Positions 5,983-42,475 of a stretch of DNA of 46,375 nt are shown here, piece after piece. The notes below the pieces were generated by a model. That model worked only from the letters and a program-made list of their open reading frames with translations. It was not told the DNA's origin and did not search any database. The translations under genes were made by a program, and so were the position numbers. The stretch comes from Escherichia phage N15. The stretch lies in sequence record NC_001901.1, one strand, 5' to 3'. Each line of letters starts with the position of its first letter. Position 1 is the first letter of the stretch.

Positions 5983-6004
5983 AGCCGCCTGCGCGGCTTT
6001 TTTT
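5983..6004 (+). terminator. Intrinsic-terminator-like hairpin between the D-like and E-like genes
   Basis: AGCCGC-ctgc-GCGGCT followed by T7. Confidence 0.6.
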
Positions 6005-6017
6005 ATGGGAAAAATCT

Positions 6018-7043
6018 ATGTCCGTTTACACCACTGCCCAGCTGCTGGCGGTCAATGAGAAGAAATTCAAATTCGATCCGCTCTTCCTGCGCATCTTTTT
6101 CCGCGAAACTTATCCCTTCAGTACAGAGAAGGTTTACCTGTCGCAAATTCCTGGCCTGGTCAACATGGCGCTGTACGTCTCGCCGATTGTCTCCGGCAAA
6201 GTGATCCGCTCCCGTGGCGGCAGCACGTCTGAATTCACGCCAGGTTATGTGAAGCCGAAACACGAAGTTAACCCACTGATGACTCTTCGCCGCCTGCCGG
6301 ATGAGGATCCACAGAACCTCGCTGACCCGGTCTACCGCCGTCGCCGCATTATCCTCCAGAACATGAAGGATGAAGAGCTGGCGATTGCGCAGGTCGAAGA
6401 GAAGCAGGCTGTTGCGGCGGTACTCAGTGGGAAATACACCATGACCGGGGAAGCGTTCGAGCCTGTTGAAGTTGATATGGGGCGCAGCGCTGGTAACAAC
6501 ATTGTCCAGGCCGGTGCGGCTGCGTGGTCCTCCCGCGACAAAGAAACGTATGACCCGACCGATGACATTGAAGCCTACGCGCTCAACGCCAGCGGTGTGG
6601 TCAACATCATTGTGTTCGATCCGAAGGGCTGGGCGCTGTTCCGTTCCTTCAAGGCAGTGAAGGAGAAACTGGATACGCGTCGAGGCTCTAACTCTGAGCT
6701 GGAAACCGCCCTGAAAGACCTGGGCAAGGCAGTTTCCTACAAGGGGATGTATGGCGATGTGGCCATCGTGGTCTACTCCGGCCAGTACATCGAAAACGAC
6801 GTCAAAAAGAACTATCTGCCAGACCTGACGATGGTCCTGGGTAACACTCAGGCGCGCGGCCTGCGTACCTATGGTTGCATTCTTGATGCCGATGCCCAGC
6901 GAGAAGGTATCAACGCTTCGACGCGTTACCCGAAAAACTGGGTGCAAACGGGCGATCCGGCGCGTGAATTCACCATGATTCAGTCAGCCCCGCTGATGCT
7001 GCTGGCAGACCCGGACGAGTTCGTGTCCGTCAAGCTGGCATAA
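6018..7043 (+). CDS. Major capsid protein (lambda gpE-like)
   Basis: 341 aa, same size and position as lambda E. MSVYTTAQLLAVNEKKFKFDPLFLRIFFRETYPF is E-like. Confidence 0.95.
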   Translation: MSVYTTAQLLAVNEKKFKFDPLFLRIFFRETYPFSTEKVYLSQIPGLVNMALYVSPIVSGKVIRSRGGSTSEFTPGYVKPKHEVNPLMTLRRLPDEDPQNLADPVYRRRRIILQNMKDEELAIAQVEEKQAVAAVLSGKYTMTGEAFEPVEVDMGRSAGNNIVQAGAAAWSSRDKETYDPTDDIEAYALNASGVVNIIVFDPKGWALFRSFKAVKEKLDTRRGSNSELETALKDLGKAVSYKGMYGDVAIVVYSGQYIENDVKKNYLPDLTMVLGNTQARGLRTYGCILDADAQREGINASTRYPKNWVQTGDPAREFTMIQSAPLMLLADPDEFVSVKLA

Positions 7044-7896: not shown

Positions 7897-8451
7897 ATGT
7901 CATTAAAAGGCCTTGAACAGGCGATAGAAAACCTTAACAGCATCAGCAAAACGGCTGTCCCGCGTGCGTCGGCGCAGGCTGTTAACCGCGTGGCAAACCG
8001 GGCCGTCAGCCGCAGCGTGGCGGTCGTATCAAAAGATACGCGCGTACCGCGAAAACTGGTAAAGCAACGCGCCAGGGTGAAGCGTGCGACGGTCAATAAA
8101 CCTCGCGCGCTTATCCGTGTAAACCGGGGCAATTTACCGGCCATTAAACTCGGAACCGCAAGCGTGCGACTTTCCCGCAGAAAACGGGATAAGAAAGGGG
8201 CCAACAGCGTTCTGCGTATAGGGCCGTTCCGTTTTCCGGGCGGTTTTATCCAGCAACTTAAAAATGGCCGCTGGCATGTCATGAGGCGTACGTCAAAACC
8301 TCGTTACCCCATTGAAGTGGTCAGCATCCCGCTGGCAGCTCCATTAACTACGGCGTTTAAAGAAGAACTGCCAAAGCTCATGGAGTCAGATATGCCCAAA
8401 GAACTCCGGGCATCCCTTACCAACCAACTCAGGTTAATTCTGACACGATGA
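7897..8451 (+). CDS. Tail completion protein (lambda gpZ-like)
   Basis: KGLEQAIENLNSISKTAVP...FIQQLKNGRWHVM matches lambda Z. Confidence 0.93.
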   Translation: MSLKGLEQAIENLNSISKTAVPRASAQAVNRVANRAVSRSVAVVSKDTRVPRKLVKQRARVKRATVNKPRALIRVNRGNLPAIKLGTASVRLSRRKRDKKGANSVLRIGPFRFPGGFIQQLKNGRWHVMRRTSKPRYPIEVVSIPLAAPLTTAFKEELPKLMESDMPKELRASLTNQLRLILTR

Positions 8452-8846
8452 AACACAGAGATATTCGCAAGGTGATTATTGACGCGCTGGAGAGCGCGAT
8501 TGGTACTGACGCCATTTATTTTGACGGCAGACCTGCAGTGCTCGAAGAGGGTGATTTTCCCGCTGTTGCCGTTTACCTGACCGATGCGGAATACACAGGG
8601 GAAGAACTGGACGCCGACACCTGGCAGGCCATTCTGCATATCGAAGTCTTTCTTGAGGCTCAGGTACCTGATTCTGAGCTGGATGACTGGATGGAGACGC
8701 GAGTGTATCCGGTTCTCGCAGAGGTTCCAGGGCTTGAATCCCTTATCACCACAATGGTTCAGCAGGGCTATGACTACCAGCGCGATGACGATATGGCGCT
8801 GTGGAGTTCTGCCGACCTGAAATATTCCATTACTTACGACATGTGA
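8448..8846 (+). CDS. Tail terminator (lambda gpU-like)
   Basis: [31 protein letters not shown]...LHIEVFL matches lambda U. Confidence 0.93.
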
Positions 8847-8853
8847 GGACCCT

Positions 8854-9591
8854 ATGGCCACACCAAACCCGCTGGCACCAACAAAAGGTGCTGGTACCAC
8901 CCTCTGGGTTTACACCGGAACCGGTGATCCATACGCCAATCCGCTTTCAGACGTTGACTGGCTGCGTCTGGCAAAGATTAAAGACCTGCAGCCCGGTGAA
9001 CTGACCGCCGAATCTGAGGATGACACCTACATCGATGATGAGAATGCCGACTGGACATCAACGATGCAGGGGCAGAAATCAGCCGGTGAAACCAACCTCA
9101 CTCTCGCGTGGATGCCGGGAGATTCCGGTCAGCAGGACCTGGTGAACTGGTTCGATGAAGGCACCGTGAAGGGGTATAAAATCAAATATCCGAATGGTGT
9201 TGTCGACGTCTTTAAGGGCTGGGTGAGCAGTCTAGGCAAGACCATCTCGTCTAAAGAGGTCATGACCCGCACGGCAAAAATCACCAACAATGGCAAACCA
9301 TCGCTGGCCGAAGACAGTGGTACAGCGCCGATTGCTGTTACGGGGATCAGCCTGGATAAATCCACGGCGGCTGTGGCGGTTGCAGCCACGACGCAACTGG
9401 TGGTTTCTGTCCTGCCAGCAAGTGCTTCAGATAAGTCTTTCCGCGTAGCCAGCTCTGATCCATCAAAAGCAACGGTCACCGTCAGCGGTAATACCCTGAC
9501 TGTCACCGGCGTAGCGGCAGGCACCGTCGAAATCATCGTCATGAGCAATGATGGTAACTTTGTGGCGATCTGCAAAGTCACTGTTTCCTGA
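8854..9591 (+). CDS. Major tail tube protein (lambda gpV-like) with C-terminal Ig-like (Big_2) domain
   Basis: Position and size. C-terminal [41 protein letters not shown] is a typical Big_2 domain. Confidence 0.92.
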
Positions 9592-21677: not shown

Positions 21678-21691
21678 ATATGGTGAGAGTT

Positions 21692-22078
21692 ATGGGATTC
21701 CCGAGCCCGGCACAGGACTACGTTGAAGAACGAATATCACTGGACAAGCTCCTCTTGACTAGGCCATCGGCTACCTACTTCATGCGCGCCGGTGCCACTC
21801 ACTATCAAGAAGGTATCCTGTACGGTGCATTGCTGGTTGTTGATGCGTCACGTACACCATGTGACGGCTCGTTACTTGTTTGCCGGATGGATGGCGAACT
21901 TAGGATAAAGCGGTACCGTAAGTCACCAACCCCTCATCTTGAGGATTTGCAAACAGGAAGAAGAGAAGAGATACCGAAATATGATGATGAAACGAGTCCG
22001 GATGCAATATTTGGCGTGATCACGTACAGCATTAACGACATGAGGTCAGGTGAATTTGATGATTGTCCAGTGTTGTAA
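21692..22078 (+). CDS. UmuD'-like protein (starts at the position of the UmuD cleavage product)
   Basis: MGFPSPAQDYVEERISLDKLLLTRPSATYF aligns to E. coli UmuD from Gly25 ([29 protein letters not shown]). Confidence 0.85.
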   Translation: MGFPSPAQDYVEERISLDKLLLTRPSATYFMRAGATHYQEGILYGALLVVDASRTPCDGSLLVCRMDGELRIKRYRKSPTPHLEDLQTGRREEIPKYDDETSPDAIFGVITYSINDMRSGEFDDCPVL

Positions 22079-22120: not shown

Positions 22121-23149
22121 CTATTTTTTCTCTTTATTTTTTATAATATTTTCCAACTTATCGAGGTCGCGATTAACCTGCTCAGCTGCACCTAATTCTG
22201 CCTCCAATAACGCTTCTATTTTTTTTATTAAATTAGAGGGTATTTTACGGCTATCTACTTTCAAAGTGACAAAACTACCCTTGTATTTAGCTACAACACC
22301 TTCACCATATTTCTTCTCGGTCTTGGGCATTTCTTCCTTATCGACAAGAATAAAGTCCTGTAGTGCCTGAATAATTCTTGCGGGCTCGAAATCCTCTCCA
22401 GCTTGCTTCATACGAAGCAACTGCTTCGCACCATCGAGCATAGTCTGCTCGTTACCCTTATACACTTTAGATAAAGCATCGCCAGCGCGAGCTGATAGCT
22501 CTCCCGGATGCTTGAAGATAGACAGGATCTCCCTCGGTAATCCGGCGGTATTCATGCAGCGGTTCACGATATTACGGTCGATGCCCTCTGCTTCAGCCAG
22601 GGCTTTAACGTTACCATCAAATTCTTTCAGTCGGCGCAAGTACCGTTTCCCGCGTTCGTATGCACTGGTTGGCCGATAGTCGTTACCCAACTGTGACAAC
22701 TGCTGCATTTGTTCATCATCCAGCTCTCCAACGAGAACCCGATAATCGCTACCAGTGATGATGGCTGTTTTGCGGCGGCGTGAGCCATCGGCAATTTCGA
22801 TAATGCCTGACGTCCTTCTGGCGAACGCGGGGTTCTGCTGTCCTGAAGTGAGGAATGAAGGGATAAGGTCGGCCAGCGCTGATTCGTTCAGCAATTCCTG
22901 ATCACGTTCATTACCGAGCCAAACCATTGTGGCCTTTTCGACTTTATCAGCAGGAATGGTTTCCAGCTTAAAAGTCACGTTGCGGCCGCAAACCGGTAGC
23001 GTAATGCTATTCCCGGACAACGAACTTAATTTGCTCTGTAAGTCGCCAACCATCGGCGAAACCGATGGCGCTTTTTGCGGCGCATTATGGTTATTGCTCA
23101 TGAACGTTTCGATGTTGGGCGCATTTTTTAATATAGAGCGATTCTTCAT
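22121..23149 (-). CDS. sopB: Partition protein SopB (ParB family centromere-binding protein)
   Basis: Strong similarity to F SopB, e.g. GVIEIADGSRRRK, SDYRVLVGELDDEQM, LGNDYRPTSAYERG. ATG at 23149 after GGAGGAC. Confidence 0.95.
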   Translation of the reverse strand: MKNRSILKNAPNIETFMSNNHNAPQKAPSVSPMVGDLQSKLSSLSGNSITLPVCGRNVTFKLETIPADKVEKATMVWLGNERDQELLNESALADLIPSFLTSGQQNPAFARRTSGIIEIADGSRRRKTAIITGSDYRVLVGELDDEQMQQLSQLGNDYRPTSAYERGKRYLRRLKEFDGNVKALAEAEGIDRNIVNRCMNTAGLPREILSIFKHPGELSARAGDALSKVYKGNEQTMLDGAKQLLRMKQAGEDFEPARIIQALQDFILVDKEEMPKTEKKYGEGVVAKYKGSFVTLKVDSRKIPSNLIKKIEALLEAELGAAEQVNRDLDKLENIIKNKEKK

Positions 23150-23151
23150 AG

Positions 23152-24315
23152 TTAGTCCTCCCAACGAGGTTTGATTAGATCTTCGAAAATTTCTTTGCAG
23201 ACTGGCTCCCAGATTTCCACTGCATTTCGCCAGGCATTAAGCGTTGAGCGTTGATTTGCTGCTTGCTCAAATACGGTGCGCATCTTGATCTGGCCTTTAC
23301 CAACTTCATCAGTGACCCGCACGACCTGTCGCAAGACCATAGCTCCCCAGGTATTTCGAATCTGCTCCTCCATCCACCGGGACTGATTGCCGTTAGTAAG
23401 GCTGTATTTGGTCAGGAGCAGGCGGACGACAGGTTCAAAGCCGCCCAAATCGACGGTTTCAAGCAGGTCGAGCAGCATGGTGAAAAACTGAAGAACTGAT
23501 GCATAGTCGAACAGCTCTGCAGGGGTTGCTACCACGATGACGTCAGCAGCACAGACAACGTTAATAGTTCCCGTACCCAAGTTTGGCGCGCTGTCTATGA
23601 CGATAATGTCGTAGTTATCCCATACAGACTCGATAGCAGCACGAAGCATCAGATGAGGGGGATGAGGTAGCTTCCCCTCGGAATGGTACTGCATCAGATC
23701 TGTTTCAATGCGGTGAAGGGCCAGGCAGCTGGGGATTATGTCGAGACCCGGCCAGCATGTTGGTTTTATCGCATATTCAGCGTTGTCGCGTTTACCCAGG
23801 TAAAATGGAAGCAGTGTATCGTCTGCGTGAATGTGCAAATCAGGAACGTAACCGTGGTACATAGATGCAGTCCCTTGCGGGTCGTTCCCTTCAACGAGTA
23901 GGACGCGGTGCCCTTGCAAGGCTAACCATTGCGCCTGGTGTACTGCAGATGAGGTTTTATAAACCCCTCCCTTGTGTGACATAACGGAAAGTACAACCGG
24001 GTTTTTATCGTCAGGTCTTTGGTTTGGGTTACCAAACACACTCCGCATATGGCTAATTTGGTCAATTGTGTAGCCAGCGCGACGTTCTACTCGGCCCCTC
24101 ATCTCAAAATCAGGAGCCGGTAGACGACCAGCTTTTTCCGCGTCTCTGATAGCCTGCGGTGTTACGCCGATCAGGTCTGCAACTTCTGTTATACCCCAGC
24201 GGCGAGTAATACGACGCGCTTCCGGGCTGTCATCGCCGAACTGTGCGATGGCAATAGCGCGCGTCATTTCCTGACCGCGATTGATACAGTCTTTCAGCAA
24301 ATTAATTAACGACAT
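23152..24315 (-). CDS. sopA: Partition ATPase SopA (ParA family, Walker type)
   Basis: Near-colinear with F SopA, e.g. KGGVYKTS, LLVEGNDPQGTASMYHG, IKPTCWPGLDIIPSCLALHRIE. ATG at 24315 after GAGGAAACAGG. Confidence 0.95.
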   Translation of the reverse strand: MSLINLLKDCINRGQEMTRAIAIAQFGDDSPEARRITRRWGITEVADLIGVTPQAIRDAEKAGRLPAPDFEMRGRVERRAGYTIDQISHMRSVFGNPNQRPDDKNPVVLSVMSHKGGVYKTSSAVHQAQWLALQGHRVLLVEGNDPQGTASMYHGYVPDLHIHADDTLLPFYLGKRDNAEYAIKPTCWPGLDIIPSCLALHRIETDLMQYHSEGKLPHPPHLMLRAAIESVWDNYDIIVIDSAPNLGTGTINVVCAADVIVVATPAELFDYASVLQFFTMLLDLLETVDLGGFEPVVRLLLTKYSLTNGNQSRWMEEQIRNTWGAMVLRQVVRVTDEVGKGQIKMRTVFEQAANQRSTLNAWRNAVEIWEPVCKEIFEDLIKPRWED

Positions 24316-24376
24316 CCTGTTTCCTCTCAAACATGCCCTTATCTTTGTGTTTTTCATCATACTTTACGTTTTTAAA

Positions 24377-24420
24377 GCAAAGCAACATAAAAAAAGCAAA
24401 GTGACTTAGAAAACGCAAAG
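24377..24420 (-). promoter_or_regulatory. sop promoter/operator with three CTTTGC repeats at 19-bp phasing
   Basis: GCAAAG on the + strand at 24377, 24396 and 24415. F SopA autoregulates through CTTTGC repeats. Confidence 0.7.
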
Positions 24421-24635
24421 TTAAGGTTCAAATCAATTTTTTGATGCGCTACAGAAGCTATTTAGCTTCATCTAAGCGCAACGGTATTACTTACGTTGGT
24501 ATATTTAAAACCTAACTTAATGATTTTAAATGATAATAAATCATACCAATTGCTATCAAAAGTTAAGCGAACATGCTGATTTTCACGCTGTTTATACACT
24601 TTGAGGCATCTCTATCTCTTCCGTCTCTATATTGA

Positions 24636-24652
24636 AACACAATCAAAGAACA
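24636..24652. repeat. Left copy of a perfect 17-bp inverted repeat bounding the telomere-resolution region (tos outer repeat)
   Basis: AACACAATCAAAGAACA; its exact reverse complement is at 24943..24959. Confidence 0.9.
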
Positions 24653-24774
24653 TCAATCCATGTGACATCCCCCACTATCTAAGAACACCATAACAGAACA
24701 CAACATAGGAATGCAACATTAATGTATCAATAATTCGGAACATATGCACTATATCATATCTCAATTACGGAACA

Positions 24775-24830
24775 TATCAGCACACAATTGCCCATTATAC
24801 GCGCGTATAATGGACTATTGTGTGCTGATA
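24775..24830. promoter_or_regulatory. telRL: telRL telomere resolution site (56 bp; central 22-bp telO palindrome at 24792..24813)
   Basis: TATCAGCACACAAT-TGC-CCATTATACGCGCGTATAATGG-ACT-ATTGTGTGCTGATA. Dyad axis lies between 24802 and 24803. Recognised as the N15 TelN target. Confidence 0.95.
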
Positions 24831-24942
24831 AGGAGAACATAAGCGCAGAACAATATGTATCTATTCCGGTGTTGTGTTCCTTTGTTATTCTGCTATTATG
24901 TTCTCTTATAGTGTGACGAAAGCAGCATAATTAATCGTCACT

Positions 24943-24959
24943 TGTTCTTTGATTGTGTT
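24943..24959. repeat. Right copy of the 17-bp inverted repeat, 36 bp upstream of the telN ATG
   Basis: TGTTCTTTGATTGTGTT is the reverse complement of 24636..24652. Confidence 0.9.
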
Positions 24960-24994
24960 ACGATATCCAGAGACTTAGAAACGGGGGAACCGGG

Positions 24995-26890
24995 ATGAGC
25001 AAGGTAAAAATCGGTGAGTTGATCAACACGCTTGTGAATGAGGTAGAGGCAATTGATGCCTCAGACCGCCCACAAGGCGACAAAACGAAGAGAATTAAAG
25101 CCGCAGCCGCACGGTATAAGAACGCGTTATTTAATGATAAAAGAAAGTTCCGTGGGAAAGGATTGCAGAAAAGAATAACCGCGAATACTTTTAACGCCTA
25201 TATGAGCAGGGCAAGAAAGCGGTTTGATGATAAATTACATCATAGCTTTGATAAAAATATTAATAAATTATCGGAAAAGTATCCTCTTTACAGCGAAGAA
25301 TTATCTTCATGGCTTTCTATGCCTACGGCTAATATTCGCCAGCACATGTCATCGTTACAATCTAAATTGAAAGAAATAATGCCGCTTGCCGAAGAGTTAT
25401 CAAATGTAAGAATAGGCTCTAAAGGCAGTGATGCAAAAATAGCAAGACTAATAAAAAAATATCCAGATTGGAGTTTTGCTCTTAGTGATTTAAACAGTGA
25501 TGATTGGAAGGAGCGCCGTGACTATCTTTATAAGTTATTCCAACAAGGCTCTGCGTTGTTAGAAGAACTACACCAGCTCAAGGTCAACCATGAGGTTCTG
25601 TACCATCTGCAGCTAAGCCCTGCGGAGCGTACATCTATACAGCAACGATGGGCCGATGTTCTGCGCGAGAAGAAGCGTAATGTTGTGGTTATTGACTACC
25701 CAACATACATGCAGTCTATCTATGATATTTTGAATAATCCTGCGACTTTATTTAGTTTAAACACTCGTTCTGGAATGGCACCTTTGGCCTTTGCTCTGGC
25801 TGCGGTATCAGGGCGAAGAATGATTGAGATAATGTTTCAGGGTGAATTTGCCGTTTCAGGAAAGTATACGGTTAATTTCTCAGGGCAAGCTAAAAAACGC
25901 TCTGAAGATAAAAGCGTAACCAGAACGATTTATACTTTATGCGAAGCAAAATTATTCGTTGAATTATTAACAGAATTGCGTTCTTGCTCTGCTGCATCTG
26001 ATTTCGATGAGGTTGTTAAAGGATATGGAAAGGATGATACAAGGTCTGAGAACGGCAGGATAAATGCTATTTTAGCAAAAGCATTTAACCCTTGGGTTAA
26101 ATCATTTTTCGGCGATGACCGTCGTGTTTATAAAGATAGCCGCGCTATTTACGCTCGCATCGCTTATGAGATGTTCTTCCGCGTCGATCCACGGTGGAAA
26201 AACGTCGACGAGGATGTGTTCTTCATGGAGATTCTCGGACACGACGATGAGAACACCCAGCTGCACTATAAGCAGTTCAAGCTGGCCAACTTCTCCAGAA
26301 CCTGGCGACCTGAAGTTGGGGATGAAAACACCAGGCTGGTGGCTCTGCAGAAACTGGACGATGAAATGCCAGGCTTTGCCAGAGGTGACGCTGGCGTCCG
26401 TCTCCATGAAACCGTTAAGCAGCTGGTGGAGCAGGACCCATCAGCAAAAATAACCAACAGCACTCTCCGGGCCTTTAAATTTAGCCCGACGATGATTAGC
26501 CGGTACCTGGAGTTTGCCGCTGATGCATTGGGGCAGTTCGTTGGCGAGAACGGGCAGTGGCAGCTGAAGATAGAGACACCTGCAATCGTCCTGCCTGATG
26601 AAGAATCCGTTGAGACCATCGACGAACCGGATGATGAGTCCCAAGACGACGAGCTGGATGAAGATGAAATTGAGCTCGACGAGGGTGGCGGCGATGAACC
26701 AACCGAAGAGGAAGGGCCAGAAGAACATCAGCCAACTGCTCTAAAACCCGTCTTCAAGCCTGCAAAAAATAACGGGGACGGAACGTACAAGATAGAGTTT
26801 GAATACGATGGAAAGCATTATGCCTGGTCCGGCCCCGCCGATAGCCCTATGGCCGCAATGCGATCCGCATGGGAAACGTACTACAGCTAA
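24995..26890 (+). CDS. telN: Protelomerase (telomere resolvase) TelN
   Basis: 631 aa starting MSKVKIGELINTLVNEVEAID. Tyrosine-recombinase-like core (…SGRRMIEIM…, …HDDENTQLHYKQF…) and an acidic tail. Adjacent to telRL. Confidence 0.97.
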   Translation: MSKVKIGELINTLVNEVEAIDASDRPQGDKTKRIKAAAARYKNALFNDKRKFRGKGLQKRITANTFNAYMSRARKRFDDKLHHSFDKNINKLSEKYPLYSEELSSWLSMPTANIRQHMSSLQSKLKEIMPLAEELSNVRIGSKGSDAKIARLIKKYPDWSFALSDLNSDDWKERRDYLYKLFQQGSALLEELHQLKVNHEVLYHLQLSPAERTSIQQRWADVLREKKRNVVVIDYPTYMQSIYDILNNPATLFSLNTRSGMAPLAFALAAVSGRRMIEIMFQGEFAVSGKYTVNFSGQAKKRSEDKSVTRTIYTLCEAKLFVELLTELRSCSAASDFDEVVKGYGKDDTRSENGRINAILAKAFNPWVKSFFGDDRRVYKDSRAIYARIAYEMFFRVDPRWKNVDEDVFFMEILGHDDENTQLHYKQFKLANFSRTWRPEVGDENTRLVALQKLDDEMPGFARGDAGVRLHETVKQLVEQDPSAKITNSTLRAFKFSPTMISRYLEFAADALGQFVGENGQWQLKIETPAIVLPDEESVETIDEPDDESQDDELDEDEIELDEGGGDEPTEEEGPEEHQPTALKPVFKPAKNNGDGTYKIEFEYDGKHYAWSGPADSPMAAMRSAWETYYS

Positions 26891-26892
26891 AA

Positions 26893-26926
26893 GAAAAGCC
26901 ACCGGTGTTAATCGGTGGCTTTTTTA
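26893..26926. terminator. Bidirectional terminator after telN
   Basis: AGCCACCG-gtgttaat-CGGTGGCT with an A-rich left flank and T6 on the right. Confidence 0.85.
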
Positions 26927-27063
26927 TTGAGGCCTGTCCCTACCCATCCCCTGCAAGGGACGGAAGGATTAGGCGGAAACTGCAGCTGCAACTACGGACA
27001 TCGCCGTCCCGACTGCAGGGACTTCCCCGCGTAAAGCGGGGCTTAAATTCGGGCTGGCCAACC

Positions 27064-28613: not shown

Positions 28614-28964
28614 TTATTGGAGTCCGGTAATCTTATTGATGACCGCAGCCACCTTAGATGTTGTCTCAAACCCCATACGGCCACGAATGAGCCACTGGAA
28701 CGGAATAGTCAGCAGGTACAGCGGAACGAACCACAAACGGTTCAGACGCTGCCAGAACGTCGCATCACGACGTTCCATCCATTCGGTATTGTCGACGACC
28801 TGGTAAGCGTATTGTCCTGGCGTTTTTGCTGCTTCCGAGTAGCAATCCTCTTCACCACAAAGAAAGTTACTTATCTGCTTCCAGTTTTCGAACCCTTCTT
28901 CTTTGAGCCGCTTTTCCAGCTCATTCCTCCACAAAACAGGCACCCATCCTCTGCGATAAATCAT
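28614..28964 (-). CDS. Hypothetical membrane protein
   Basis: 116 aa. ATG at 28964 lies 2 nt after the upstream stop. Hydrophobic LWFVPLYLLTIPFQWLI segment. Confidence 0.6.
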   Translation of the reverse strand: MIYRRGWVPVLWRNELEKRLKEEGFENWKQISNFLCGEEDCYSEAAKTPGQYAYQVVDNTEWMERRDATFWQRLNRLWFVPLYLLTIPFQWLIRGRMGFETTSKVAAVINKITGLQ

Positions 28965-28966
28965 GA

Positions 28967-29296
28967 TTATTTGTCCTTTAAATAAGGCTGTAGAACTGCA
29001 AAATCGCTCTCGTTCACATGCTGTACGTAGATGCGTAGCAAATTGCCGTTCCATCCCTGTAATCCACCTTCTTTGGAAAGATCGTCCTTGACCTCACGAA
29101 GAACCTTATCCAATAGCCCTGCGGCACAAGAAATTGCCTGCTCTGGATCAGCAAATTCATATTGATTAATAGGTGATTGCCACACACCAAAAACAGGAAT
29201 CATCTTTTCGGCTAAACGCCTCTCCTGTTCTTTCTTAATCTCAAGTTGTAAGCGGACCAGCTCACCATCCATCATTTTTTGTAGATCATGCGCCAC
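28967..29296 (-). CDS. Hypothetical protein
   Basis: 109-aa ORF tightly packed in the repA-downstream operon. Confidence 0.6.
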   Translation of the reverse strand: MAHDLQKMMDGELVRLQLEIKKEQERRLAEKMIPVFGVWQSPINQYEFADPEQAISCAAGLLDKVLREVKDDLSKEGGLQGWNGNLLRIYVQHVNESDFAVLQPYLKDK

Positions 29297-29299
29297 TAT

Positions 29300-29629
29300 T
29301 CACCCCCACTGGCCATCAGCAAATAAAGCTTCATACTCGGACACCGGCAGGCGGCTTCCACGGATTGAAAGGTCAAGCCAACCACGTCCAGATGGGTCAG
29401 CCTTATCCGATTCTTCCCACCGTTCTGCAGCTGTAGCAACCAGGCATTCTACCGCCTTCATGTAGTCTTCTGTACGGAACCAGCCGTAGTTAATGCCACC
29501 ATCAGTAACTGCCCAGGCCATCTTTTTCTCTTCGGCCTCAATAGCCCGGATGCGGTTATCGCACAGCTCGCGACAGTACTTCAGCTGTTCGTAATCCAGT
29601 TGCTTCAGGAACTCTGGTGTCGACGTCAT
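29300..29629 (-). CDS. Hypothetical protein
   Basis: 109-aa ORF whose start overlaps the upstream stop (ATGA). Confidence 0.6.
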   Translation of the reverse strand: MTSTPEFLKQLDYEQLKYCRELCDNRIRAIEAEEKKMAWAVTDGGINYGWFRTEDYMKAVECLVATAAERWEESDKADPSGRGWLDLSIRGSRLPVSEYEALFADGQWG

Positions 29630-29874
29630 AGTGGCTTCACCTTATAGGCTTTTAGAAGCGCCCTGGCTTCGTCTGTGTGGTCTTCCATGCTCTTATCGCT
29701 GGCAATGCAGCAATAAACTCCCTCACTATCTGAGAACCCGTTCATCCGAATGATCGTGAATGGAAGTTCCCGGCCAGTTTTATAATCGCTATAGCTTGTC
29801 GCGTCGTGGCTGACCTTGACCACATAAGGGTCGTAGCCCTCCACGATGACAAGGCATTCCCGTTGTTTTCCCAT
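29626..29874 (-). CDS. Hypothetical protein
   Basis: 82 aa. ATG at 29874 preceded by GGAGGGG, 11 nt after the repA stop. Confidence 0.6.
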   Translation of the reverse strand: MGKQRECLVIVEGYDPYVVKVSHDATSYSDYKTGRELPFTIIRMNGFSDSEGVYCCIASDKSMEDHTDEARALLKAYKVKPL

Positions 29875-29885
29875 TACCCCTCCGG

Positions 29886-32800
29886 TTATATCGCCACGGC
29901 TTGCCGCTGGCTTAGAAACGCTTTCAGCAGCCTTATTTCGCGTACTGATAGCAGGTCCATAAATTCGGTCATGTACAGCGAGGCGAACGTTCTCGCGATG
30001 CTGGCCACTGGCCACAGGCGTACCGCCTCCATTTCGGTTGCTGGCAACGCGTTCTCCGCCCACGCCTCCGGTACCGCCACCGGGATAGCCTCCAGTGCCT
30101 GGATAATTACTGATTGTGGGGCGTCCGGAACGTGCTCTGTTTTGGATCGAGGGTTACCATGTATATCTATATTTAGATCCAAATCGCGATCCACTTCGAT
30201 GGTGGTTTTTTCCACCTTACGTGCGTGAATTGATAAACCGGCCTCGCGGCGCTTCTCCACGATATTCATGAGGAACTCGACCGAGTCCGGGTCAATGGAA
30301 CGCATCGTGGGGCGTGCATCGCCGTCTCTGGCGCGTCTGGTCTTACTGGATAGCCCCATAGACTCCAGGATGCCTATGCAGAGGTCTGCAGGCGCTTTCT
30401 TCTTGCCTTTCTCTGTGTTGAAGCCGCCGATGCGTAAAACGTTGTTTAGCAGATCGCGCCGTTCCGGCGTGAGCAGGTTATCTCTGGCGCGTTTGAGGGC
30501 GTCCATGTCTGCTTCACCTTCCAGGGTTTTTGGATCGATACCGCAGTCGCGGAAGTACTGCTGCAGCGTCGCCGATTTGAGGGTGTAGAAACCACGCATG
30601 CCTATCTCAACAGCAGGGGTCGATTTCACTCGGTAATCGGTTATGGCCGGGAATTTAGCCTGGAACTCTGCGTCGGCCTGTTCCCGCGTCATGGCCGTAG
30701 TGACGAACTGCTGCCATCTTCCGGCAACGCGATAAGCGTAGGTAAAGTGAATCAACGCTTCTTCACGGTCAAGGCGACGGGCGGTTATCTCATCCAGCTG
30801 CATGGTTTCAAACAGGCGCACTTTTTTCAGGCCGCCGTCGAAATAGAATTTTAACGCCACCTCGTCGACATCCAGCTGCAGCTCCTTTTCGATGTCCCAG
30901 CGGACCAGCTGGGCCTGCTCATCCAGGGACAGGGTGCGTTTTTTTATCAACTCATCGTGTTCGGCCTGGTCAGGAGTATCGACACTCAGGTGGCGCTCCA
31001 TAAGCTGCTCAAAGACCAGTTCACGGGCTTCTTTACGTAAATCCTTACCGATGCTGTTTGCAAGCGCGTCGGTGGCCATAGGCGCGACCTGATAGCCATC
31101 ATCATGCATGATGCAAATCATGTTGCTGGCATAATCATTTCTGGCCGATGCCTCGAGCGCGGCGGCTTTAATTTTGAGCTGCATGAATGAAGAGTTAGCC
31201 ACGCCGAGTGAAATTCGGTCACCGTCAAAGACAACGTCTGTCAGCAGCCCGGAGTGGCCAGCCGTTTCGAGCAAGGCCTGCGCGTAGGCGCGTTTGATTT
31301 TTTCCGGATCGGTTTCACGTTTACCGCGAAGCTTGTCGAAACCGATAATGTATTCCTGAGCTGTACGGTCGCGGCGCAGCATCTGGATGGCGTCGCTGGG
31401 GACCACTTCGCCGCAGAACATGCCGAAATGGCGGTGGAAGTGTTTCTCCTCAATCGATACACCTGAAGATATCGACGGGCTGTAGATGAGGCCGTCATAT
31501 TTTTTCACCATCACTTTAGGCTGGTTGGTGAAATCGTCGACTTCCTTCTCCTGTTTGTTTTTCTGGTTAACGCAGAGAAACTTTTTGTCAGGGAACTGTA
31601 GTCTCAGCTGCATGGTAACGTCTTCGGCGAACGTCGAACTGTCGGTGGCCAGCATGATTCGTTCGCCGCGTTGCACTGCAGCGATAACCTCGGTCATGAT
31701 CCGATTTTTCTCGGTATAAAATACGCGGATAGGCTTGTTGGTTTCGCGGTTGCGAACGTCGACCGGGAGTTCAATCACGTGAATTTGCAGCCAGGCAGGT
31801 AGGCCCAGCTCCTCGCGTCGCTTCATCGCCAGTTCAGCCAGGTCAACAAGCAGATCGTTGGCATCGGCATCCACCATAATGGCATGCTCTTCAGTACGCG
31901 CCAGCGCGTCGATAAGCGTGTTGAATACGCCTACCGGGTTTTCCATCGCACGCCCGGCCAGAATGGCACGCAGGCCCTGTGTTGCTTCATCGAAGCCGAA
32001 GAAGTCATGCTGGCGCATCAGCGGTTGCCAGCAGCCTTTAAGTATGGAGTTGATGCAAATAGTCAGCTTGTTGGCATATGGCGCCATTTCCTGATAGCCG
32101 GGATCCTGATAATGCAGAATGTCGGCTTTCGCGCCTTTCCCTTCGGTCATCATTTCATGCAGGCCGCCTATCAGGGATACGCGGTGCGCGACGGAAACGC
32201 CACGCGTGGACTGCAGCATCAGTGGACGCAGGAGGCCTGTCGATTTACCCGACCCCATCCCGGCGCGGACAATAACGATGCCCTGCAGCTGTGCGGCGTA
32301 TGTCATCACCTCATCGGTCATCCTGGAGGTTTCAAACCGTTTGTAAGTGATGTGTGACGGGCGAAGGTTCGGGTTGGTGATGCGTTCACTGAACGAACGT
32401 GATGTTTGCGCGGCACGGCATTTGCGATTCAACCGGCGCGTAATGTGATCTTTAACGGTACCGTTATAAATTTCTGCGATACCCATATCCCGCAGCGTGC
32501 TGCTGAAAAGGCGCATAAGTTCTTTCGGGCTGTTTGGTACCGGGCATGTCAGCATGCCAATATCAACGGCGCGAAGCAGTTCTTTGGCAAAAGTGCGTCT
32601 GTTCAGACGCGGGAGAGTACGCAGCTTATTCAGCGTGATCGACAACAGGTCGGTTGCACGGCTCAGATGATTTCTCGTTAACTGGCGAGCGACTTCCTTC
32701 AGCCCTCTCAGGCTGTGCAGGTCGTTAAAATCGCTGCATTCCAGCTCAGGGTCATCCTCAAAAGTTGGGTAAACACATTTGACGCCGGAAAACTTCTCCA

Positions 32801-33860
32801 TGATGTCGAATCCGGTGCGGAGGCCTGTGTTGCCTTTTCCTTCAGCTGAGGATTTGCGGTCGTTATCGAGAGCGCAAGTGATTTGCGCAGCCGGGTACAT
32901 GTTCACCAGCTGCTCGACAACGTGAATCATGTTGTTAGCGGAAACCGCAATGACTACCGCGTCAAAGCGTTTTTTCGGGTCGTTTCTGGTCGCCAGCCAG
33001 ATGGATGCCCCGGTGGCGAAACCCTCTGCAGTCGCAATTTTTTGCGCCCCCTGCAGGTCGCCAATAACAAAGCATGCACCGACGAAATCACCGTTAGTGA
33101 TGGCGCTGGTCTGGAACTTGCCACCATTCAGATCGATACGTTGCCAGCCAACAATCCGCCCGTCTTTTCTTCCGTCCAGGTGGGACAGAGGTATCGCCAT
33201 GTAAGTTGTTGGTCCACGGCTCCATTTCGCACTGTCGTGACTGGTCACGCGACGTATATCACAAGCGCCAAATACGTCACGAATTCCCTTTTTTACCGCA
33301 TAAGGCCAGGAGCCATCTTCAGCTGGCGAATGTTCCCAGGCGCGATGGAAAGCCAACCATCCAAGCAGGCGTTCCTGCTCCATCTGATTGTTTTTTAAAT
33401 CATTAACGCGTTGTTGTTCAGCTCGGAGGCGGCGTGCTTCAGCCTGGCGCTCCATGCGTGCACGTTCTTCTTCCGGCTGAGCGACCACGGTCGCACCATT
33501 CCGTTGCTGTTCACGGCGATACTCCGAAAACAGGAATGAAAAGCCACTCCAGGAGCCAGCGTCATGCGCTTTTTCAACGAAGTTAACGAAAGGATAACTG
33601 ATGCCATCCTTGCTCTGCTCAAGGCGTGAATAGATTTCCACACGGCCTTTAAGGCTCTTCTGCAGAGCTTCCGGGGAGGAATTATTGTAGGTGGTATAGC
33701 GCTCTACACCACCGCGCGGATTGAGCTGAATCTTATCAGCACACGCAGGCCAGTTGATACCGGCCATCTTCGCCAGCTCAGTCAGCTCATCACGTGCCGC
33801 GTCAAGCAGTGAAAACGGATCGCTGCCAAAGCGCTCCGCGTAGAATTCTTGTAAGGTCAT
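29886..33860 (-). CDS. repA: Replication protein RepA (primase / Toprim plus helicase multidomain replicase)
   Basis: 1324 aa. Toprim-like TAEGFATGASI...CALDNDRKSSAEGKGNTG. Walker A VRAGMGSGKST. Plasmid-type replicase known as the only N15 gene needed for plasmid replication. Confidence 0.95.
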   Translation of the reverse strand: MTLQEFYAERFGSDPFSLLDAARDELTELAKMAGINWPACADKIQLNPRGGVERYTTYNNSSPEALQKSLKGRVEIYSRLEQSKDGISYPFVNFVEKAHDAGSWSGFSFLFSEYRREQQRNGATVVAQPEEERARMERQAEARRLRAEQQRVNDLKNNQMEQERLLGWLAFHRAWEHSPAEDGSWPYAVKKGIRDVFGACDIRRVTSHDSAKWSRGPTTYMAIPLSHLDGRKDGRIVGWQRIDLNGGKFQTSAITNGDFVGACFVIGDLQGAQKIATAEGFATGASIWLATRNDPKKRFDAVVIAVSANNMIHVVEQLVNMYPAAQITCALDNDRKSSAEGKGNTGLRTGFDIMEKFSGVKCVYPTFEDDPELECSDFNDLHSLRGLKEVARQLTRNHLSRATDLLSITLNKLRTLPRLNRRTFAKELLRAVDIGMLTCPVPNSPKELMRLFSSTLRDMGIAEIYNGTVKDHITRRLNRKCRAAQTSRSFSERITNPNLRPSHITYKRFETSRMTDEVMTYAAQLQGIVIVRAGMGSGKSTGLLRPLMLQSTRGVSVAHRVSLIGGLHEMMTEGKGAKADILHYQDPGYQEMAPYANKLTICINSILKGCWQPLMRQHDFFGFDEATQGLRAILAGRAMENPVGVFNTLIDALARTEEHAIMVDADANDLLVDLAELAMKRREELGLPAWLQIHVIELPVDVRNRETNKPIRVFYTEKNRIMTEVIAAVQRGERIMLATDSSTFAEDVTMQLRLQFPDKKFLCVNQKNKQEKEVDDFTNQPKVMVKKYDGLIYSPSISSGVSIEEKHFHRHFGMFCGEVVPSDAIQMLRRDRTAQEYIIGFDKLRGKRETDPEKIKRAYAQALLETAGHSGLLTDVVFDGDRISLGVANSSFMQLKIKAAALEASARNDYASNMICIMHDDGYQVAPMATDALANSIGKDLRKEARELVFEQLMERHLSVDTPDQAEHDELIKKRTLSLDEQAQLVRWDIEKELQLDVDEVALKFYFDGGLKKVRLFETMQLDEITARRLDREEALIHFTYAYRVAGRWQQFVTTAMTREQADAEFQAKFPAITDYRVKSTPAVEIGMRGFYTLKSATLQQYFRDCGIDPKTLEGEADMDALKRARDNLLTPERRDLLNNVLRIGGFNTEKGKKKAPADLCIGILESMGLSSKTRRARDGDARPTMRSIDPDSVEFLMNIVEKRREAGLSIHARKVEKTTIEVDRDLDLNIDIHGNPRSKTEHVPDAPQSVIIQALEAIPVAVPEAWAENALPATEMEAVRLWPVASIARTFASLYMTEFMDLLSVREIRLLKAFLSQRQAVAI
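30141..30215. other. ori: Candidate replication origin core inside the 3' part of repA
   Basis: TTGGATC / GATCCAA inverted repeat (30141..30147, 30175..30181) flanks the AT-rich catgtatatctatattta. Several GATC sites. GGTGG-tttttt-CCACC hairpin. The N15 ori is reported to lie within the repA 3' region. Confidence 0.3.
33479..33496. promoter_or_regulatory. Centromere-like palindrome (SopB site) inside repA
   Basis: GAGCGACC-AC-GGTCGCAC, one arm mismatch relative to the other three sites. Architecture resembles F sopC TGGGACC-AC-GGTCCCA. Confidence 0.7.
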
Positions 33861-33932
33861 TTTTTAGCCTTTCCATGCGAATTAGCATTTTTTCGGGTTG
33901 AAAAAATCCGCAGGAGCAGCCACAATAAACGC

Positions 33933-34013
33933 ACTATCTTTCTGAAGGACGTATCTGCGTTATCGTGGCTACTTCCTGAAAAAGGCCCGAGTTTGCCGAC
34001 TCGGGTTTTTTTT
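33933..34013 (+). ncRNA. Candidate antisense RNA to the repA leader
   Basis: + strand promoter TTGAAA-17-CACAAT (33898..33926). Hairpin AACGCA...TGCGTT. Terminator CCCGAGT-ttgccg-ACTCGGG plus T8 (33986..34013). Confidence 0.45.
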
Positions 34014-34078
34014 CGTCTTTTTTCGGCTGCTACGGTCTGGTTCAACCCCGACAAAGTATAGATCGGATTAAACCAGAA

Positions 34079-35973: not shown

Positions 35974-36157
35974 GCAAGGCCCCATGTCGCGCACTGATGC
36001 GGAAAATATTTCTGACCTTTATAAGAAAAAAGGTCATGAAGTAGTTATCGCAGAATCCATGAATTTAGATGGAACTTATTATGTTTACGTTACGCTACCT
36101 GAATTAAAGCAAGAGCCTAAGCCATCCAAAACCTTTCAACAAAGAATATGGGAGTAA
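35954..36157 (+). CDS. Hypothetical protein
   Basis: 67-aa ORF from the ATG at 35954. Ends 2 nt before the RBS-linked start of the next gene. Confidence 0.5.
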   Translation: MKNTPFKQGPMSRTDAENISDLYKKKGHEVVIAESMNLDGTYYVYVTLPELKQEPKPSKTFQQRIWE

Positions 36158-36159
36158 CA

Positions 36160-37074
36160 ATGGTAAATATCCAAAAAACGATTTTAGCGATGATTATGCA
36201 TAAATGGCTTAAGAGCGATTATGTTGTCATTGACACGGAAACAACAGGGCTGGGCGAATATGCTGAGATTATCGAAATTGCGATCATCAATATGCGCGGA
36301 GAAGTTTTGCTGGACACTTTGGTTAAACCGACCAAACCGATCCCTCCTGAAGTAACCGAAATAAACCACATCACAAACGAAATGGTCGCCAGTGCACCAG
36401 CGTGGTGTGATGTGTTCCCGAAGGTGCTGGCGATCATCAGTAAACACAAATGGCTGGCCTGGAATTCTGGTTTCGATGCTCGCATGCTGGAACAGACCTG
36501 CTTGAACACGATTTTTTTAAATAAAAATGCTTATTACGTGACCGCAATGGTTTCCCGTATTCACACGAGCCATATTGACGCTAAAGCAGTCTACGACACG
36601 TGGTACGGAGAGTACGATGCGAAGCACCAGGCTTTCAAGCGCCAGAGCCTGACAATCGCAGCTGCCCGACACGGTGTATTGCTGGAAGGAGCACACCGCG
36701 CTCTGGCCGACTGCAAAATGGTTCTGGCCGTACTGCAAAAAGTCTGCGCTCCCGTTCCTCAGATTGAAAGCTCTGTCGAGAAAGACCTGCCACCCTGCCC
36801 GTTCTGTTATGGGCCACCATCGTTGTTCACCCATTACCTGAATGACAAAGGCTATTCCCCTTTATATCAGCCCGTGAATTATGGCGATGATGGCCTGTAC
36901 GTAGGTTCGTATGTCTTTTGCCATGAATGCGGCGCACAGGGTGAAGAAGTAGGAGGCCACGCCTACGAAGATTCAGATGTAGAGCAGCTCGAAGCAGCAG
37001 CCAGGAATGTCTGGTCCGATCGCAACGAACGCCACCGCGACCTGTATACAGCCTCTCGAAACGTCGAAGAGTAA
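36160..37074 (+). CDS. DEDDh (DnaQ-like) 3'-5' exonuclease fused to a C-terminal Lar-type zinc ribbon
   Basis: Exo I VVIDTETTGL, Exo II AWNSGFDARML, Exo III GAHRALADCKM. C-terminus LPPCPFCYG...YVFCHECGAQG...AARNVWSDRN. GGGAG lies 5 nt before the ATG. Confidence 0.8.
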   Translation: MVNIQKTILAMIMHKWLKSDYVVIDTETTGLGEYAEIIEIAIINMRGEVLLDTLVKPTKPIPPEVTEINHITNEMVASAPAWCDVFPKVLAIISKHKWLAWNSGFDARMLEQTCLNTIFLNKNAYYVTAMVSRIHTSHIDAKAVYDTWYGEYDAKHQAFKRQSLTIAAARHGVLLEGAHRALADCKMVLAVLQKVCAPVPQIESSVEKDLPPCPFCYGPPSLFTHYLNDKGYSPLYQPVNYGDDGLYVGSYVFCHECGAQGEEVGGHAYEDSDVEQLEAAARNVWSDRNERHRDLYTASRNVEE

Positions 37075-41250: not shown

Positions 41251-41386
41251 GTGCCTGAAAAAGTGGGCGCGGGACGAGTTGCAGCTCATCCCGCGGTCAA
41301 CCCATGCCAGAGGTATAGGCTGAACCCAAAGCCCACCCGCGATGCGCATCGCTGGGTTAGCTTACCCAGGCAGAACCATAATAGCT

Positions 41387-42475
41387 ATGTTAAAAACTAC
41401 ACAAATCAATGGAGCGCAGCTCGTTTGCGCAGATTCTCTGCAATTCATAAAAACCATCCCTGATAATTCCGTAAACCTGATCGCGACAGACCCGCCCTAT
41501 TTTGGCGTTAAGTCGAACGACTGGGACAACCAGTGGGAAAGTGACGCGGACTTTTTGGGCTGGCTTGATGAGTTTCTGGCGGAGTTCTGGAGGATACTGG
41601 CCCCAAATGGAAGCCTGTATATGTTTTCCGGTTCGCGGCTTGCGGCAAAAGTTGAATTACTTACCCGCGACCGTTTCAATGTTTTGAACCACATCACCTG
41701 GGCTAAACCGAGCGGTGTATGGCGGCGGCAAAATAAAGAGAGCCTGCGAGCATTCTTCCCGGCAACCGAGCGCATCATATTCGCTGAACATTACGGCGCG
41801 TCTGGCTATGCGAAAGGTCAGTCGGGTTATGCCAGCAAATGTGCAGAGTTGCGGAAAGACGTATTTTCTCCGTTGATTGGAGCATTTGCATCAGCCCGAC
41901 AGCAGCTGGGGATTTCAGCTGCGGACATCAACGCTGCGACAGGGAAAAAGATGTGTTCACACTGGTTTTCCTCGTCGCAGTGGCAGTTACCGTCGCTGGA
42001 TGACTTCAACAAGCTGCATGAGCTGTTTATGCAGCGGGCGCAAGTTCTCGGCGTAGCATGTCCTCCGCCATTCGATATCGGGTATAGCGAGCATGAAAAG
42101 CAGTATGCCGATCTAAAAACGCAATACGATGCGGTTAAAGCGCAATACGATGGCCTTAAGGCTCAGTATGAAAGCCTGCGCCGCCCGTTCTCTGTGACTG
42201 CAGATGTTCCCTATACGGATGTTTGGGAGTTCCCACCGGTGCAGTATTACCCAGGGAAACACCCGTGCGAGAAGCCAGCTGCGATGATGGAACATATCAT
42301 CAGGAGCAGCTCTCGCCCCGGCGATGTAGTCGCCGACTTCTTCATGGGGTCCGGTAGTACGATTAAGGAGGCTCTGAAGCTTGGGCGTAAGGCCATAGGC
42401 GTAGAAATTGAAGAAGAGCGTTACCTGCAGACAGTAGAAGAAGTTAAAGAAGTAGTAAAAAAAGAAGAGAGTTGA
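41387..42475 (+). CDS. DNA N6-adenine/N4-cytosine methyltransferase (beta class, PF01555-type)
   Basis: Motif IV IATDPPYF near the N-terminus and motif I DFFMGSGST near the C-terminus. Confidence 0.85.
   Translation: MLKTTQINGAQLVCADSLQFIKTIPDNSVNLIATDPPYFGVKSNDWDNQWESDADFLGWLDEFLAEFWRILAPNGSLYMFSGSRLAAKVELLTRDRFNVLNHITWAKPSGVWRRQNKESLRAFFPATERIIFAEHYGASGYAKGQSGYASKCAELRKDVFSPLIGAFASARQQLGISAADINAATGKKMCSHWFSSSQWQLPSLDDFNKLHELFMQRAQVLGVACPPPFDIGYSEHEKQYADLKTQYDAVKAQYDGLKAQYESLRRPFSVTADVPYTDVWEFPPVQYYPGKHPCEKPAAMMEHIIRSSSRPGDVVADFFMGSGSTIKEALKLGRKAIGVEIEEERYLQTVEEVKEVVKKEES

Follow-up and report, generated by a model that had tools for sequence, protein, structure and literature searches.

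The 46,375-nt sequence of Escherichia phage N15 (NC_001901.1; hereafter the window, meaning this whole stretch) contains the phage's telomere-resolution module, which consists of the site telRL, lying in an AT-rich target region of about 0.3–0.4 kb, and the adjoining gene telN, encoding the protelomerase TelN. We regard this identification as practically certain, and no evidence against it was found. Sequence identity, the anatomy of the site, the protein family and its key residues, the genomic context, conservation in relatives and the relatives' records ending at the dyad were computed here; the cutting and joining chemistry, the linear state of the prophage and the protection of its ends are taken from the literature. 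It was with TelN/telRL of N15 that the formation of hairpin telomeres in bacteria found its first example, and the system is widely used as a tool in linear cloning vectors, in the production of closed linear 'doggybone' DNA and in the linearization of bacterial and yeast chromosomes. Since the mechanism has been published for exactly this sequence, the telRL/telN finding is already known, as a preliminary description of the same DNA had said in calling it not new, and nothing new about the biology follows from meeting it again in the genome of N15. Two observations go beyond that description: a pentamer flanking the site is enriched and conserved, and for two relatives the publicly deposited sequence either stops at the homologous dyad or folds back around it. 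What the flanking repeats do is of modest specialist interest and bears on the protective structure that TelN was recently proposed to form at the hairpin ends (PMC12624138).

Identity of the sequence

The preliminary description had suggested a BLAST comparison with N15. Positions 24741-27000 proved to be 100% identical (megablast, phage collection) to GenBank U63086, which is entitled 'Bacteriophage N15 telomerase (telN) and secondary immunity repressor (cA) genes', and positions 28717-34069 were likewise 100% identical to the N15 record U63085 ('repA: primase'). Nucleotide identity to N15 rests on these two deposited segments, and the remaining window was compared with relatives. U63086 matches the window over its bases 1-2,559 and is out of register from base 2560 (window position ~27300, downstream of telN), which probably reflects an indel or a sequence revision in this older record from the 1990s. 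These two matches, together with the identical 12-nt cohesive (cos) ends at its termini, identify the window as the phage N15 genome. Counting the doubly written cohesive end once gives a unique length of 46,363 bp for the genome, and the dyad of telRL (24802/24803) lies at 53% of it. Coordinates of the features are collected in Table 1.

Table 1. Features of the N15 telomere-resolution module and of associated loci (window coordinates)
Feature	Position	Strand	Basis or remark
Cohesive end, GGGCGGCGTCCG	1-12 and 46364-46375	.	identical 12-nt termini
sopB-like gene, centromere-binding protein	22121..23164	-	Pfam SoPB_HTH, 8e-21
sopA-like gene, partition ATPase	23152..24360	-	Pfam AAA_31/CbiA; homologue annotated sopA in related plasmids
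tos, extended TelN target region, ~0.4 kb; AT-rich spacer between sop operon and telN	24609..24974	.	published primers
Outer inverted repeat, left arm, 17 bp	24636..24652	+	perfect; arm-like ACACAAT and GAACA motif
Five direct RGAACAY pentamers left of telRL	24648, 24683, 24696, 24738, 24770 (span 24648..24774)	+	motif search and script
Degenerate outer-arm copy TAACAGAACACAAC, candidate R2	24691..24704	+	3 mismatches; ACACAA core at 24698
telRL, telomere resolution site, 56 bp	24775..24830	.	stem_loop 35-90 of U63086, 100% identity
Outer 14-bp arm, telR side (R3 repeat)	24775..24788	+	perfect inverted partner of 24817-24830; R3 named in PMC12624138
telO, perfect 22-bp palindrome, dyad 24802/24803	24792..24813	.	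script check
Central CGCGCG, presumed 6-bp stagger of the paired cuts by TelN	24800..24805	.	sequence
Outer 14-bp arm, telL side (L3 repeat)	24817..24830	-	perfect partner of 24775-24788; L3 named in PMC12624138
Pair of direct RGAACA pentamers immediately right of telRL, directed away from dyad	24835, 24848 (24835..24852)	+	retained in 5/5 and 4/5 relatives
Three inverted RGAACA pentamers right of telRL	24875, 24899, 24943 (24875..24947)	-	kept in 4/5, 5/5 and 5/5 relatives
Outer inverted repeat, right arm, 17 bp	24943..24959	-	perfect; invariant in six sequences
Degenerate outer-arm copy TATCGTAACACAAT, candidate L1	24952..24965	-	3 mismatches; ACACAA core at 24953; invariant alignment block
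telN, protelomerase (telomere resolvase), 631 aa	24995..26890	+	CDS 255-2150 of U63086, 100% identity
repA, linear-plasmid replication/primase protein, 1324 aa	29886..33860	-	PHROG 'replication' and DNA primase families; 100% identical to U63085

Structure of telRL

The stem_loop feature of U63086 that coincides with telRL carries the label 'telRL-site; formation of the N15 terminal hairpin loops'. Read directly and checked by script, the site has the form TATCAGCACACAAT-TGC-CCATTATACGCGCGTATAATGG-ACT-ATTGTGTGCTGATA, so that a 22-bp palindrome nested within 14-bp inverted arms, as announced in the preliminary description, was found at precisely the positions it had given. In the 3-bp spacers separating palindrome and arms, the middle base pairs with its partner and the outer two do not; these positions (24789 and 24791 with their partners) are the sole unpaired ones in each half. 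Taken as a whole, telRL was detected by a repeat finder as gapless 28-nt arms with 93% complementarity. Its left half is the source of the telR hairpin and its right half that of the telL hairpin. The CGCGCG at the centre is presumed to be the 6-bp stagger between the two cuts. The telO palindrome is invariant in all six aligned sequences of the N15 clade, with the same core in phage phiKO2 and in a Citrobacter plasmid, and the central decamer TACGCGCGTA is common to PY54 and phiKO2. The 56 bp of telRL are enough for processing by TelN in vivo and in vitro (PMC3540006). A stretch near the 5' end of repA, TATCAGCACACGCA at 33734-33747 (+ strand), begins with 11 nt identical to the telRL outer arm; about 0.02 such matches would be expected per window by chance.

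The protelomerase TelN

The 631-aa ORF that the preliminary description placed 165 bp to the right of the site does begin there, with an ATG at 24995, and ends at 26890. A TTG start at 24953 (645 aa), given in the mechanical ORF list, was rejected, as the ATG is the start of the deposited CDS and follows a G-rich ribosome-binding stretch. The product had been recognized as TelN with a core like that of tyrosine recombinases, and this was borne out by the identity to U63086, by four Pfam domains (TelK_N, 2.4e-47; TelK_muzzle, 6.5e-61; ResT-TelK_cat, 8.7e-24; TelK_stirrup, 4.4e-47), all far above their cut-offs, by the match to the TelK structure and by Tyr425. The catalytic domain of the ResT/TelK type (PF16684) scored 84.5 bits against a cut-off of 27 over residues 260-428, and the accessory TelK-type domains (N-terminal, muzzle and stirrup; PF22853, PF20849 and PF20818) gave full-profile matches with E <1e-46. 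Residues 1-537 of TelN align without gaps to the TelK crystal structure 2v6e (E=0), and a weaker match, confined to the catalytic domain, was obtained with Borrelia ResT (8vs5; E = 8.6e-5). In the gapless alignment to 2v6e, TelN and TelK share R275, K300, R383, H416 and Y425; the first four presumably form the catalytic basic set. Tyr425 (counting Met1) is the nucleophile of TelN, and TelN(Y425F) has been reported as catalytically dead (PMC12624138).

TelN is the sole recombinase-like protein among the scanned ORFs. The preliminary description had remarked on the lack of an integrase, and among the 29 scanned ORFs, each 170 aa or longer, there was no match to a family of integrases or serine recombinases (Phage_integrase, Resolvase or Recombinase) at E<=1e-3. 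The ORFs in this size class number 32; the three left unscanned (6003-6947, 8304-8900 and 11249-12127) each overlap a longer gene on the opposite strand.

Telomere resolution and the linear prophage

The preliminary description had proposed that cutting and hairpin sealing at the dyad of the cos-circularized genome give a linear plasmid with a permuted map; the cohesive ends are present here, and the mechanism is the one published for N15 (PMC10612081, PMC3540006, PMC2847241, PMC12624138). After injection, the virion DNA circularizes through its 12-nt cohesive ends, and TelN binds telRL; the TelK structure points to a dimer with one subunit on each half-site, although binding assays show little cooperativity between the TelN half-sites. 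Staggered cuts around 24802/24803, with a covalent link through Tyr425, leave self-complementary overhangs, each of which is rejoined on itself into a closed hairpin, telR (ending at 24802) or telL (starting at 24803). Hairpin formation at both ends therefore makes the prophage a linear plasmid, its map permuted by ~53% relative to that of the virion, with RepA serving its replication and SopAB its partition. Following replication, the duplicated ends (telLL and telRR) are resolved again by TelN, and TelN remains bound, shielding the hairpins from the host nuclease SbcCD. Circularization at cos, staggered cutting by TelN, fold-back and joining of the overhangs, and a prophage permuted by ~50% relative to the virion have been described (PMC10612081). 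Both RepA and TelN are required, replication being primed by RepA and the replicated ends re-cleaved by TelN (PMC2847241). Cleaving-joining into two covalently closed hairpins has been reported for TelN/telRL (PMC3540006, PMC2847241, PMC12624138), and TelN protects the hairpins from SbcCD independently of catalysis (PMC12624138).

A different interpretation would make the palindrome a shared operator or bidirectional terminator of divergent sopAB and telN operons, the ORF a conventional integrase or dimer resolvase, and the prophage circular or integrated. The site does lie between divergent operons, a terminator scan flagged a hairpin with a T-rich tail at 24792-24813, and the catalytic domain is akin to that of tyrosine recombinases. 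However, the sequence is the experimentally characterized telRL/telN, to which the literature on hairpin formation applies directly and for which the hairpin products of a TelN assay have already been reported; moreover, the ORF product has muzzle and stirrup domains, which are specific to protelomerases, and linear records of relatives end at the dyad. We therefore consider an operator or terminator to be extremely improbable and retain telomere resolution as the function of the site.

Comparison with related systems

The telRL/tos site and TelN of coliphage N15 (U63086; Ravinvirus N15) are the same object as that analyzed here and not a relative, with annotation, neighbours and cos-ended genome length alike. 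The elements with which they can be compared fall at three distances: 1) N15-like phage-plasmids of Enterobacter (MStein-2023a, pJBIWA007_2, P5 of isolate 78, pRHBSTW-00490_4 and p53EVA-1) share 83-95% DNA identity across sopA-tos-telN, have an invariant telO and carry the RGAACAY and ACACAA repeats at the same places as N15. They differ in host genus and in small changes of the 3-bp spacers and the arms, most of them have been deposited as circular, and MStein-2023a has a perfect palindrome of 28 bp, compared with 22 bp in N15. 2) TelK/telRL of Klebsiella phage phiKO2 has the same four protein domains, with a gapless protein alignment over residues 1-537 and ~77% DNA identity in the gene, as well as the same central CCCATTATACGCGCGTATAATGGG core, the gene order sopBA-telRL-tel and a distance of ~190 bp from dyad to start codon. 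In contrast, the annotated phiKO2 site is 50 bp long against 56 bp in N15, its outer arms are unlike those of N15, and its flanks are too diverged for megablast. 3) Tel/pal of Yersinia phage PY54, ResT of Borrelia and TelA of Agrobacterium belong to the same enzyme family and share the cleaving-joining chemistry that gives hairpin telomeres, but their proteins are much more distant; ResT and TelA lack the muzzle/stirrup architecture of the TelK type and serve bacterial replicons. PY54, which shares the central TACGCGCGTA with N15, has a 42-bp perfect palindrome as its site, and this functions only partially in vivo without flanking DNA (PMC3540006).

Records of three relatives were instructive with respect to the prophage ends. 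The linear record of Klebsiella phage NAR688 (CP072507.2), which was taken from a complete assembly of the lysogen's genome, starts precisely at the homologous telO dyad (GCGTATAATGG / GCGTATAATGGG) and its end, too, falls exactly at the dyad. The record of phage 48ST307 (KY271402.1) starts 34 nt past the dyad, and 22 of the 24 dyad-nearest bases fold back, the first 10 being unpaired. In the Enterobacter cloacae plasmid p53EVA-1 (NZ_CP138441.1), a circular record, the sequence to the left of the dyad repeats that on the right in inverted form for at least 815 bp, reaching into telN; the copy is 99% complementary over the first 115 nt and then shows many 1-2-base indels. It is most likely an assembly read-through around a hairpin telomere, and, if so, the record represents a mis-closed linear plasmid. 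These three records may be taken as independent, circumstantial signs that prophages of the N15 type end at the dyad in natural lysogens.

Enterobacter plasmids and phages are the nearest relatives, followed by those of Klebsiella and Citrobacter. A megablast search with positions 24300-25300 (sopA-telRL-telN) gave no match among 5,426 complete RefSeq genomes of E. coli; elements of the N15 type seem to be rare in E. coli, the species from which N15 was isolated.

The tos region and its outer repeats

When the published primers (PMC2847241) were placed on the window, tosLOC fell at 24609-24626 and tosROC-2 at 24955-24974, so that the 0.4-kb 'telRL region' obtained with them approximately coincides with the AT-rich zone outlined in the preliminary description. 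The natural TelN target has been given as ~310 bp with repeats L1-L3 and R1-R3 (PMC12624138). The zone 24636-24959 has a G+C content of 36%, compared with 51% for the whole window, and is bounded by the perfect 17-bp inverted repeat that had been noted earlier, which a repeat finder lengthened to 29 nt at 86%. Six copies of the hexamer ACACAA, which forms the core of the outer arm, lie in the spacer between sopA and telN, three on the + strand left of the dyad and three on the - strand right of it, and the set is therefore mirror-symmetric about the dyad (P = 4e-8). Degenerate copies of L3 and R3, named L1/L2 and R1/R2, are known (PMC12624138); the copies at 24691 and 24952 fit these and are candidates for such repeats, the name R2 for the former being our assignment. 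No convincing match to the consensus of IHF, LexA or DnaA was found by eye.

The RGAACA pentamer array

Ten copies of GAACA are present within the 324 bp of positions 24636-24959, five on the + strand to the left of telRL and two on the + and three on the - strand to the right. The preliminary description had listed ten GAACA(Y) motifs; their count and orientations were correct, but the final pyrimidine is absent from two of them (24848 and 24943), which read GAACAA. As all ten copies follow a purine, the motif is RGAACA, and an eleventh copy of it lies beyond the zone at 24569. The number in the zone compares with 0.58 expected (Poisson P = 7e-10), or with 0.68 expected from the composition of the zone (P = 3e-9), and the best other 324-bp stretch of the window contains 4. 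GAACA is not generally common, since the whole window holds 93 copies against 94 expected.

Conservation was assessed in an alignment of N15 with the five N15-like Enterobacter elements (83-95% identity). In the left flank, per-position identity was 96% within the pentamers and 60% elsewhere (four relatives; permutation p = 0.0002), and in the right flank the corresponding values were 97% and 82% (permutation p = 0.012). The right flank, from telL to telN, is itself the better conserved, with 83% identity versus 66% for the left flank in the same four relatives. The strong enrichment and the conserved islands in the five Enterobacter elements indicate that the array is probably functional. It would be at most accessory, since the 56-bp core suffices for processing and TelN's C-terminal domains are not needed for protection.

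The pentamers overlap only partly with the ACACAA and arm copies; at 24696 and 24875, where GAACACAA is found, a pentamer is fused with an ACACAA core. The possibility that they are mere degenerate copies of the 14-bp arm was rejected as a full explanation: it holds in part, as a search allowing up to 3 mismatches detects two flank copies (24691 and 24952), whereas the pentamers at 24683, 24738, 24770, 24835, 24848 and 24899 fall outside any arm-like copy. The orientations within the array lack mirror symmetry, as the pair of copies next to telL is direct. In addition, a 21-nt inverted repeat (24833-24853 and 24885-24905, 86%) is confined to the telN side and includes four pentamers. An array is also present in the relatives of the phiKO2 type (phiKO2 and the Citrobacter plasmid), where the flank repeats are (C)ATAACAC(AAT) in place of the RGAACAY of N15; left of the site these are direct, and right of it most are inverted, except for the copy just beside the site (TAACAC), which is direct, as in N15. 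The flank motif changes between the N15 clade and the phiKO2/Klebsiella/Citrobacter clade, and telO is unchanged.

For the ACACAA and RGAACAY repeats in the flanks, we infer a role as accessory elements that bind protein. One reading is that the pentamers are accessory binding sites for TelN, which would place extra TelN beside each hairpin and so form a protective nucleoprotein cap or improve resolution in vivo. The tenfold presence of the motif where fewer than one copy is expected, the islands of conservation on both sides of telRL, the fusion of several pentamers with ACACAA cores, which are themselves symmetric about the dyad, and the analogous array of a different motif, (C)ATAACAC, in the phiKO2 clade are consistent with such sites, and binding of the flank repeats by the C-terminal domain of TelN has been proposed as possible (PMC12624138). 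Against them, the core by itself is processed in vivo and in vitro (PMC3540006), the C-terminal domains can be dispensed with in end protection (PMC12624138), and the pair nearest telL is directed off the dyad, which would not be expected if both ends were served equally. On balance, accessory TelN sites appear a reasonable possibility, with somewhat less than an even chance of being correct.

The asymmetry could alternatively reflect a direction-dependent function such as transcription, the pentamers being regulatory sites for the expression of telN, and perhaps of sop, that are bound by TelN or by another phage or host protein and have no telomere function. The far better conservation of the right flank, which necessarily holds the telN promoter, would agree with this, as would the inverted repeat with its four pentamers on the telN side and the motifs immediately to the right of telRL, which are direct in both clades. 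However, a promoter scan of 24300-25050 called no sigma-70-like promoter on the + strand upstream of telN (the three sites called on the - strand do not exceed the number in shuffled sequence), and the five pentamers beyond the hairpin belong to the prophage end opposite to that carrying telN. We know of no regulator acting on the pentamers, and a purely regulatory role seems unlikely.

A further proposal, which we put forward tentatively and regard as rather doubtful, is that the ten RGAACAY pentamers represent a selectively maintained cis element distinct from the ACACAA repeats (L1-L3/R1-R3), whose asymmetry gives the two telomeres different properties. If true, this could mean, for example, control of telN specific to telL, or a TelN cap that is unlike at the two ends. 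A separate role for the pentamers was not described in the literature covered.

Genome layout and neighbouring genes

The left 21 kb of the window contains lambda-like terminase, portal, capsid and tail genes that are ~90% identical to those of HK225, mEp237 and phi80. The plasmid functions listed in the preliminary description, partition by sopAB and replication by repA, were both recovered, the former through Pfam matches to SopA and SopB homologues and the latter through PHROG replication and primase families together with the identity to U63085. The ATPase of the SopA type (ParA/SopA) and the SopB_HTH protein are encoded on the minus strand directly to the left of the telRL zone. Just upstream of the sopA start, three GCAAAG hexamers (24377, 24396 and 24415, + strand) are spaced at 19 bp and are visible in relatives too. 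Their complement, CTTTGC, is the operator motif of SopA in the F plasmid, and the repeats probably mark an autoregulated sop promoter that is separate from the tos zone. Just past the 3' end of sopB is a 132-aa ORF (21680-22078, +) with a Peptidase_S24 domain (UmuD/LexA-like).

Between telN and repA lies the gene for a Bro-N protein; its homologue in phiKO2 carries the annotation of an AntB-like anti-repressor. The right arm includes two ORFs resembling DNA methyltransferases, at 41342-42475 (+) and 44531-45541 (+), with matches to N6_N4_Mtase and a partial match to C-5 cytosine methylase. Finally, a 308-aa ORF at 36148-37074 combines an RNase_T exonuclease domain with a Lar restriction-alleviation domain in a single fused protein.

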